Assembly: GCF_013315695.1 (NCBI RefSeq)
Contig: NZ_CP054353.1
Source of the DNA: Escherichia coli
GTDB lineage: Bacteria > Pseudomonadota > Gammaproteobacteria > Enterobacterales > Enterobacteriaceae
Direction: 5' to 3' (one strand)
Length of the DNA stretch: 64,000 bases
This document shows, piece by piece, positions 23,586 through 23,601 of the stretch (position 1 is its first letter; each line of letters begins with the position of its first letter). The notes under the pieces were generated by a model, which was given only the letters and a program-made list of their open reading frames with translations, did not search any database and had not been told where the DNA came from. The position numbers and the translations under genes are program-made.

Positions 23586-23601
23586 GCGCAAACGTTTTCC
23601 G
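23586..23601. promoter_or_regulatory. PurR operator (PUR box) in pyrD control region
   Basis: gcgcaaacgttttccg matches PUR box consensus ACGCAAACGTTTTCNT at 14 of 16 positions; lies 87-102 bp upstream of the pyrD start. Confidence 0.7.

Follow-up and report, generated by a model that had tools for sequence, protein, structure and literature searches.

The 110-bp gap between ycbF and pyrD in this Escherichia coli DNA carries a 16-bp imperfect palindrome that was initially annotated as a PUR box, the operator of PurR. Two questions follow from this placement: whether the motif is the site from which PurR controls pyrD, and how PurR could act from a position that lies closer to the end of the preceding gene than to the start of pyrD. 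The DNA analysed (hereafter the window) is a 64-kb stretch of the E. coli chromosome, in the orientation opposite to that of K-12. Over 2 kb around the motif, the DNA matches strains MS 21-1 and MSB1_4I at 100% identity; the annotation there is ycbV-ycbF-pyrD. The features that define the locus are as follows.

24347..23610, minus strand: ycbF, the final gene of the elf/ycb fimbrial operon (stop codon 23612..23610, 8 nt upstream of the PUR box)
23601..23586, minus strand: PUR box (PurR operator) of pyrD, CGGAAAACGTTTGCGC, at approximately -70..-55 relative to the C start at 23531
23499..22489, minus strand: pyrD, quinone-dependent dihydroorotate dehydrogenase (from the list of open reading frames; the 100% identical DNA is pyrD in MS 21-1 and MSB1_4I)

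These coordinates agree with the placement of the motif in a 110-bp gap (23609..23500, between the ycbF stop codon and the pyrD ATG at 23499), with the box starting 8 nt past the stop codon and ending 87 nt ahead of the ATG. The fimbrial operon is indeed co-directional with pyrD, as had been claimed; the elf/ycb genes and an upstream IS1 all share the pyrD strand, which is the minus strand, a point left unremarked before. The plus strand at 23586..23601 reads gcgcaaacgttttccg, corresponding to CGGAAAACGTTTGCGC in the direction of pyrD. The purR gene, a core gene of E. coli, is located outside the 64-kb window. We also noted that elfC (26451..29051) is an intact 866-aa ORF in the window, whereas the annotation of MS 21-1, 99.9% identical in other respects, gives it as frameshifted (L001, 6349..8950); ssuB is likewise frameshifted in that strain.

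The box is an imperfect 16-bp palindrome with a central CG and contains the 10-base core AAACGTTTGC exactly. It has four mismatches to the perfect palindrome ACGCAAACGTTTGCGT, and it agrees with the published motif ACGNAAACGTTTGCNT at 11 of the 14 specified positions. A search of the window for ACGCAAACGTTTGCGT with up to three mismatches allowed therefore gave no match, since the site itself has four, while the degenerate core pattern alone gave three matches against 2.2 expected, which is not significant. As neither search was adequate, we used a weight matrix built from published sites, namely 27 motifs from Table 1 of Cho et al. 2011 (PMC3159470), with the pyrD site left out. Scored with this leave-one-out matrix, the box in the window reached 18.8 bits, within the 12-25 bits spanned by the 28 published sites, and ranked first among 127,970 window positions. 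A score of 18.8 bits was reached somewhere in 4.7% of random 64-kb sequences, and we estimate the chance of a match this good within one 110-bp gap at ~1e-4. The runner-up in the window, ACGACCACGATTTCGT at 59583..59598 on the plus strand, scored 13.9 bits; the mean best score of random 64-kb sequences is 15.6 bits, and this second match is therefore probably due to chance. The statement that the pyrD site matches the PurR operator consensus thus holds for the exact core and for the matrix score, but the fit is looser than implied, given the four mismatches to the palindrome and the 11/14 agreement with the published motif.

The identity of the site is best seen by comparison with K-12. In MG1655, the 16-mer CGGAAAACGTTTGCGT occupies the positions 87-102 nt upstream of the pyrD ATG, the same offset as for the site in the window, and CGGAAAACGTTTGCGT is, base for base, the motif that Cho et al. 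2011 (PMC3159470) give for the pyrD region bound by PurR in ChIP-chip. PurR bound this region only when adenine was present, and the enrichment of 1.01 places it among the weaker peaks (PMC3159470). Passages of PMC3159470 and PMC6245113 state, citing Wilson and Turnbough 1990, that PurR represses pyrD directly, and the same passages add that the effect falls far short of the repression seen for the pur genes. The comparison with a published PurR footprint proposed in the initial annotation is answered here by ChIP-chip together with a motif, which place PurR at the K-12 orthologue, and not by a DNase footprint. With the K-12 orthologue at an identical offset being the ChIP-chip motif, and with the box kept in 80 species (see below), the assignment of the site as the PurR operator of pyrD is borne out. 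Taken as a whole, the best explanation is that the motif serves as an operator for modest PurR repression of pyrD from an upstream position (probability roughly 0.93). That a PurR operator lies upstream of pyrD is already known. The K-12 operator (RegulonDB/EcoCyc; Wilson and Turnbough 1990; Cho et al. 2011) has the same gene, 87-nt offset and orientation as the site described here, and the two are identical at 15 of 16 bases. The window has a C at position 16 where K-12 has a T, and two flanking bases also differ, one at -2 of the box and one 11 nt downstream.

By the weight matrix, C16 in place of T16 costs ~2.1 bits, and the window allele is predicted to bind PurR slightly less well. A C at position 16 is also present in accepted PurR sites, such as those of purHD and carAB, and the C16 allele would be expected to retain PurR binding. 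Among 5426 complete E. coli genomes, the exact window version of the box was found in 450 (~8%) and the exact K-12 version in 3554. In 1302 of the 5426 (~24%), including the type strain ATCC 11775, the elf operon is absent and ssuE is divergent from pyrD; these genomes carry the box AAGAAAACGTTTGCTA at the same place, with a score of 14.5 bits. When the two arrangements were compared (positions 23601..23612 of the window, 630..880 of L084 and 1200..1510 of L004), similarity started only at GAAAACGTTTGC, and we therefore conclude that the upstream edge of the PUR box forms the boundary of the variable fimbrial island.

To place the box relative to the pyrD promoter, we numbered positions from the C at 23531 as +1, which gave the following elements between the box and the coding sequence.

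23579..23585, minus strand: T7 tract, -54..-48, directly after the box
23558..23578, minus strand: conserved block GCCACAGGTCAATTCCCTTTT, -47..-27, recognised with the upstream regions of the species side by side
23566..23561, minus strand: weak -35 hexamer TTCCCT, -35..-30, inferred from its 17-bp spacing to CATAAT
23567..23494, minus strand: Rfam RF02373 PyrD_leader, a full-length match at 97.9 bits against a gathering score of 47
23543..23538, minus strand: -10 hexamer CATAAT, invariant or nearly so across species
23532..23529, minus strand: alternative start-site cluster CCCG, from the literature model (PMC6524683)
23532..23515, minus strand: leader hairpin CCCGGU/ACCGGG
23509..23505, minus strand: Shine-Dalgarno sequence AGGAG

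On this numbering the box, at -70..-55, is centred on -62.5 and lies upstream of the core promoter. A promoter scan of the ycbF-pyrD gap detected no consensus-like sigma-70 promoter, consistent with the weak -35. The leader hairpin, which limits translation, forms only in transcripts that start at C (PMC6524683), and by folding, the C-start leader reached -11.7 kcal/mol with the hairpin, compared to -4.5 for the G-start leader.

The conservation of these elements was examined in 80 Enterobacteriaceae loci (L003-L082, upstream of position 1501), obtained by scanning one genome per species with the PyrD protein. A PUR box was found in 80/80 species, always oriented alike, at a distance of 85-98 nt from the pyrD ATG and with scores of 13-24.6 bits. 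Further upstream of the box the sequence is unrelated between genera, and downstream it is almost invariant, comprising the T-rich tract, the block GCCGCAGGTCAATTCCCTTT, CATAAT and the entire leader to the ATG. Nearly all 80 species have a T-rich tract immediately before GCC, irrespective of where the box lies, and the T7 tract of the window is possibly an upstream promoter element similar to an UP element. We also observed that GCCACAGGTCAATTCCCTTTT is almost invariant in the 80 species, a conservation that exceeds what a poor -35 explains; the block may bind another factor or provide RNA polymerase with upstream contacts.

The distance between the box and the downstream block was restricted to two ranges. 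In 31 species, as well as in the window and K-12, 11-13 nt separate the box from the conserved GGTCAATTC block; in the other 49 the spacer measures 21-24 nt, and these long spacers are diverse in sequence; no spacer of 14-20 nt was found among the 80 species. The two classes thus differ by one helical turn, which suggests that the helical face of the box matters, with the caveat that a small number of ancestral indels could be enough to account for both classes. Two Citrobacter loci (L009 and L016) resemble a short-class promoter with an extra 11 bp, which suggests at least one independent gain of 11 bp. A tentative reading, which we consider less likely than not, is that the PUR box acts from a fixed helical face, so that repression would be phase-dependent, for example by bending or by hindering the contacts that RNA polymerase makes upstream, and would not follow the usual occlusion mode. 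If true, such a phase-dependent mechanism would also explain the weak repression of pyrD. No description of helical phasing of the pyrD PUR box was found in the literature examined, and the one-turn spacing across Enterobacteriaceae, while the only mildly new point, offers a testable handle on PurR repression from upstream positions.

A mechanism can be proposed in which the PurR dimer, a LacI-family protein, would bind the pyrD box together with hypoxanthine or guanine. With the centre of the box ~62 bp upstream of the start sites, just ahead of the T tract and the weak -35, bound PurR would leave the core promoter uncovered and would lower initiation only modestly. This position is unlike the usual PurR arrangement, in which the operator overlaps the promoter, and the route by which repression would be exerted from there is inferred. 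PurR may occupy or bend upstream DNA that would otherwise be used by the C-terminal domains of the RNA polymerase alpha subunits, with the box on a constant helical face. Strong bending of the operator by PurR has been reported, and a weak -35 would need upstream contacts; together these points suggest a hindrance of this kind, which would fit weak repression. The purine control is added to a separate pyrimidine control, in which a CTP/GTP-sensitive choice of start site determines whether the leader hairpin is formed and limits translation.

The initial annotation had also pointed out that read-through from an IS1-driven remnant of the fimbrial operon would enter pyrD across the operator. The geometry of this claim is sound, but both the driving of the remnant by IS1 and read-through into pyrD are speculative and drew no support from the analysis. 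The element itself is real.

30396..29629, minus strand: IS1, 768 bp, with insA-insB co-directional with elf and pyrD (ends read from the sequence; BLAST against K-12 and MS 21-1)

Compared to K-12 and MS 21-1, IS1 replaces ~990 bp, namely the whole of elfA together with the 222 bp that precede it and the first 146 nt of elfD. No 9-bp target duplication is present in the two flanks (29076..29628 and 30397..30530). MSB1_4I has the identical right IS1 junction, but there the element is a simple insertion in elfD and elfA is intact, which suggests that the window arose from such a strain by a deletion adjacent to IS1. The exact IS1/elf structure of the window was found in no complete E. coli genome of the collection. 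IS1 is situated 6.1 kb upstream of pyrD, and the native elf promoter region is gone; a promoter scan gave no outward-facing consensus promoter at the right end of IS1. Between ycbF and pyrD, a terminator scan and folding revealed no canonical intrinsic terminator, so that read-through is compatible with the sequence, and a literature search for ycbF-pyrD co-transcription returned nothing relevant. The truncated elfD, which has lost its 5´ end and start codon, is probably untranslated and exposed to Rho, and in laboratory-grown K-12 even the intact elf operon is cryptic, with poor expression (PMC5797941). Given the 6.1 kb to be crossed, the probable lack of elfD translation, the cryptic nature of the operon in K-12 and the presence of a conserved promoter belonging to pyrD itself, a meaningful contribution of IS1-driven read-through to pyrD expression is unlikely.

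The same geometry bears on what PurR might do at the box. Besides or instead of controlling initiation, the bound protein could form a roadblock to polymerase reading through from elf/ycb or IS1: the box, 8 nt past the ycbF stop codon, lies in the path of any such polymerase, no canonical intrinsic terminator intervenes, and roadblocking is documented for PurR inside purB. The box is, however, at the same place and in the same phase where no co-directional gene lies just upstream, which is the case in ~24% of E. coli genomes and many genera; the divergent ssuE of E. coli ATCC 11775 is an example. Helical phasing is not required for a roadblock, yet the spacing is phase-constrained, and the operon that would supply the polymerase is cryptic in K-12 and has its promoter region deleted in the window. 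Since the phasing is conserved and the box is present also in genomes that lack such a gene, we argue that roadblocking is not the main role of the site and consider this explanation improbable. A proposal that does away with a protein altogether is that the palindrome and the T7 run constitute the intrinsic terminator of the fimbrial operon, as the coding strand has an imperfect inverted repeat followed directly by TTTTTTT. The terminator scan, however, gave no minus-strand match here, the 37-nt RNA reaches only -6 kcal/mol, which does not exceed the stability of shuffled sequences (z = +0.34), and in a more stable 65-nt fold the U run is itself paired. In addition, the box is kept in species without a co-directional upstream gene, and many species break the T run as TTTATT. 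Folding thus gave no stable G+C-rich hairpin ahead of the U run, and we rejected this reading as very improbable. The 65-nt structure (23576..23640, minus strand) is a long hairpin in which the A-rich 3´ end of ycbF pairs with the U run after the box, enclosing the box (-20.9 kcal/mol, z = -2.2); it is not terminator-like.

The motif could also belong mainly to another LacI-family repressor, such as RbsR, or be a chance match with no function. LacI-family operators resemble one another, and random 64-kb sequences score equally in 4.7% of cases. Against both possibilities, the K-12 region is occupied by PurR in vivo in an adenine-dependent manner, the match to the PurR matrix keeps its quality across 80 species, and the box is the only strong match in the window and lies exactly within the regulatory region of a gene known to belong to the PurR regulon. 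We regard either possibility as very doubtful, about as remote as termination at the palindrome, and the reading as an operator for modest PurR repression of pyrD is the one we retain.

The pyrD site is accordingly a PurR operator that is already catalogued; it ties pyrimidine synthesis to the supply of purines, and on its own it matters little. The small additions made here are the minority C16 allele, the retention of the box at the very edge of a variable fimbrial island, and the one-turn spacing. Comparison with other PurR targets helps to place the site. The PUR boxes of pur genes such as purF, purHD and purMN share with the pyrD box the 16-bp CG-centred palindrome, the repressor and its corepressors; these boxes, however, repress strongly from positions over or between the -35 and -10 elements, whereas the pyrD box lies near -62 and repression is weak. 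Closer in arrangement is the upstream PUR box of carAB P1 (centre -128.5), which, like that of pyrD, belongs to a pyrimidine-pathway gene, lies upstream of its core promoter and has a modest purine effect. At carAB, PurR alone cannot repress and requires PepA-dependent remodelling, and the pyrD box is much closer to its promoter. Finally, at the roadblock sites of purB and purR, PurR bound away from the promoter can block elongating polymerase, and the geometry of the pyrD box would allow the same toward read-through from ycbF. The purB and purR sites, however, are downstream of their own promoters, in the transcribed region, whereas the pyrD box is upstream of the pyrD promoter.
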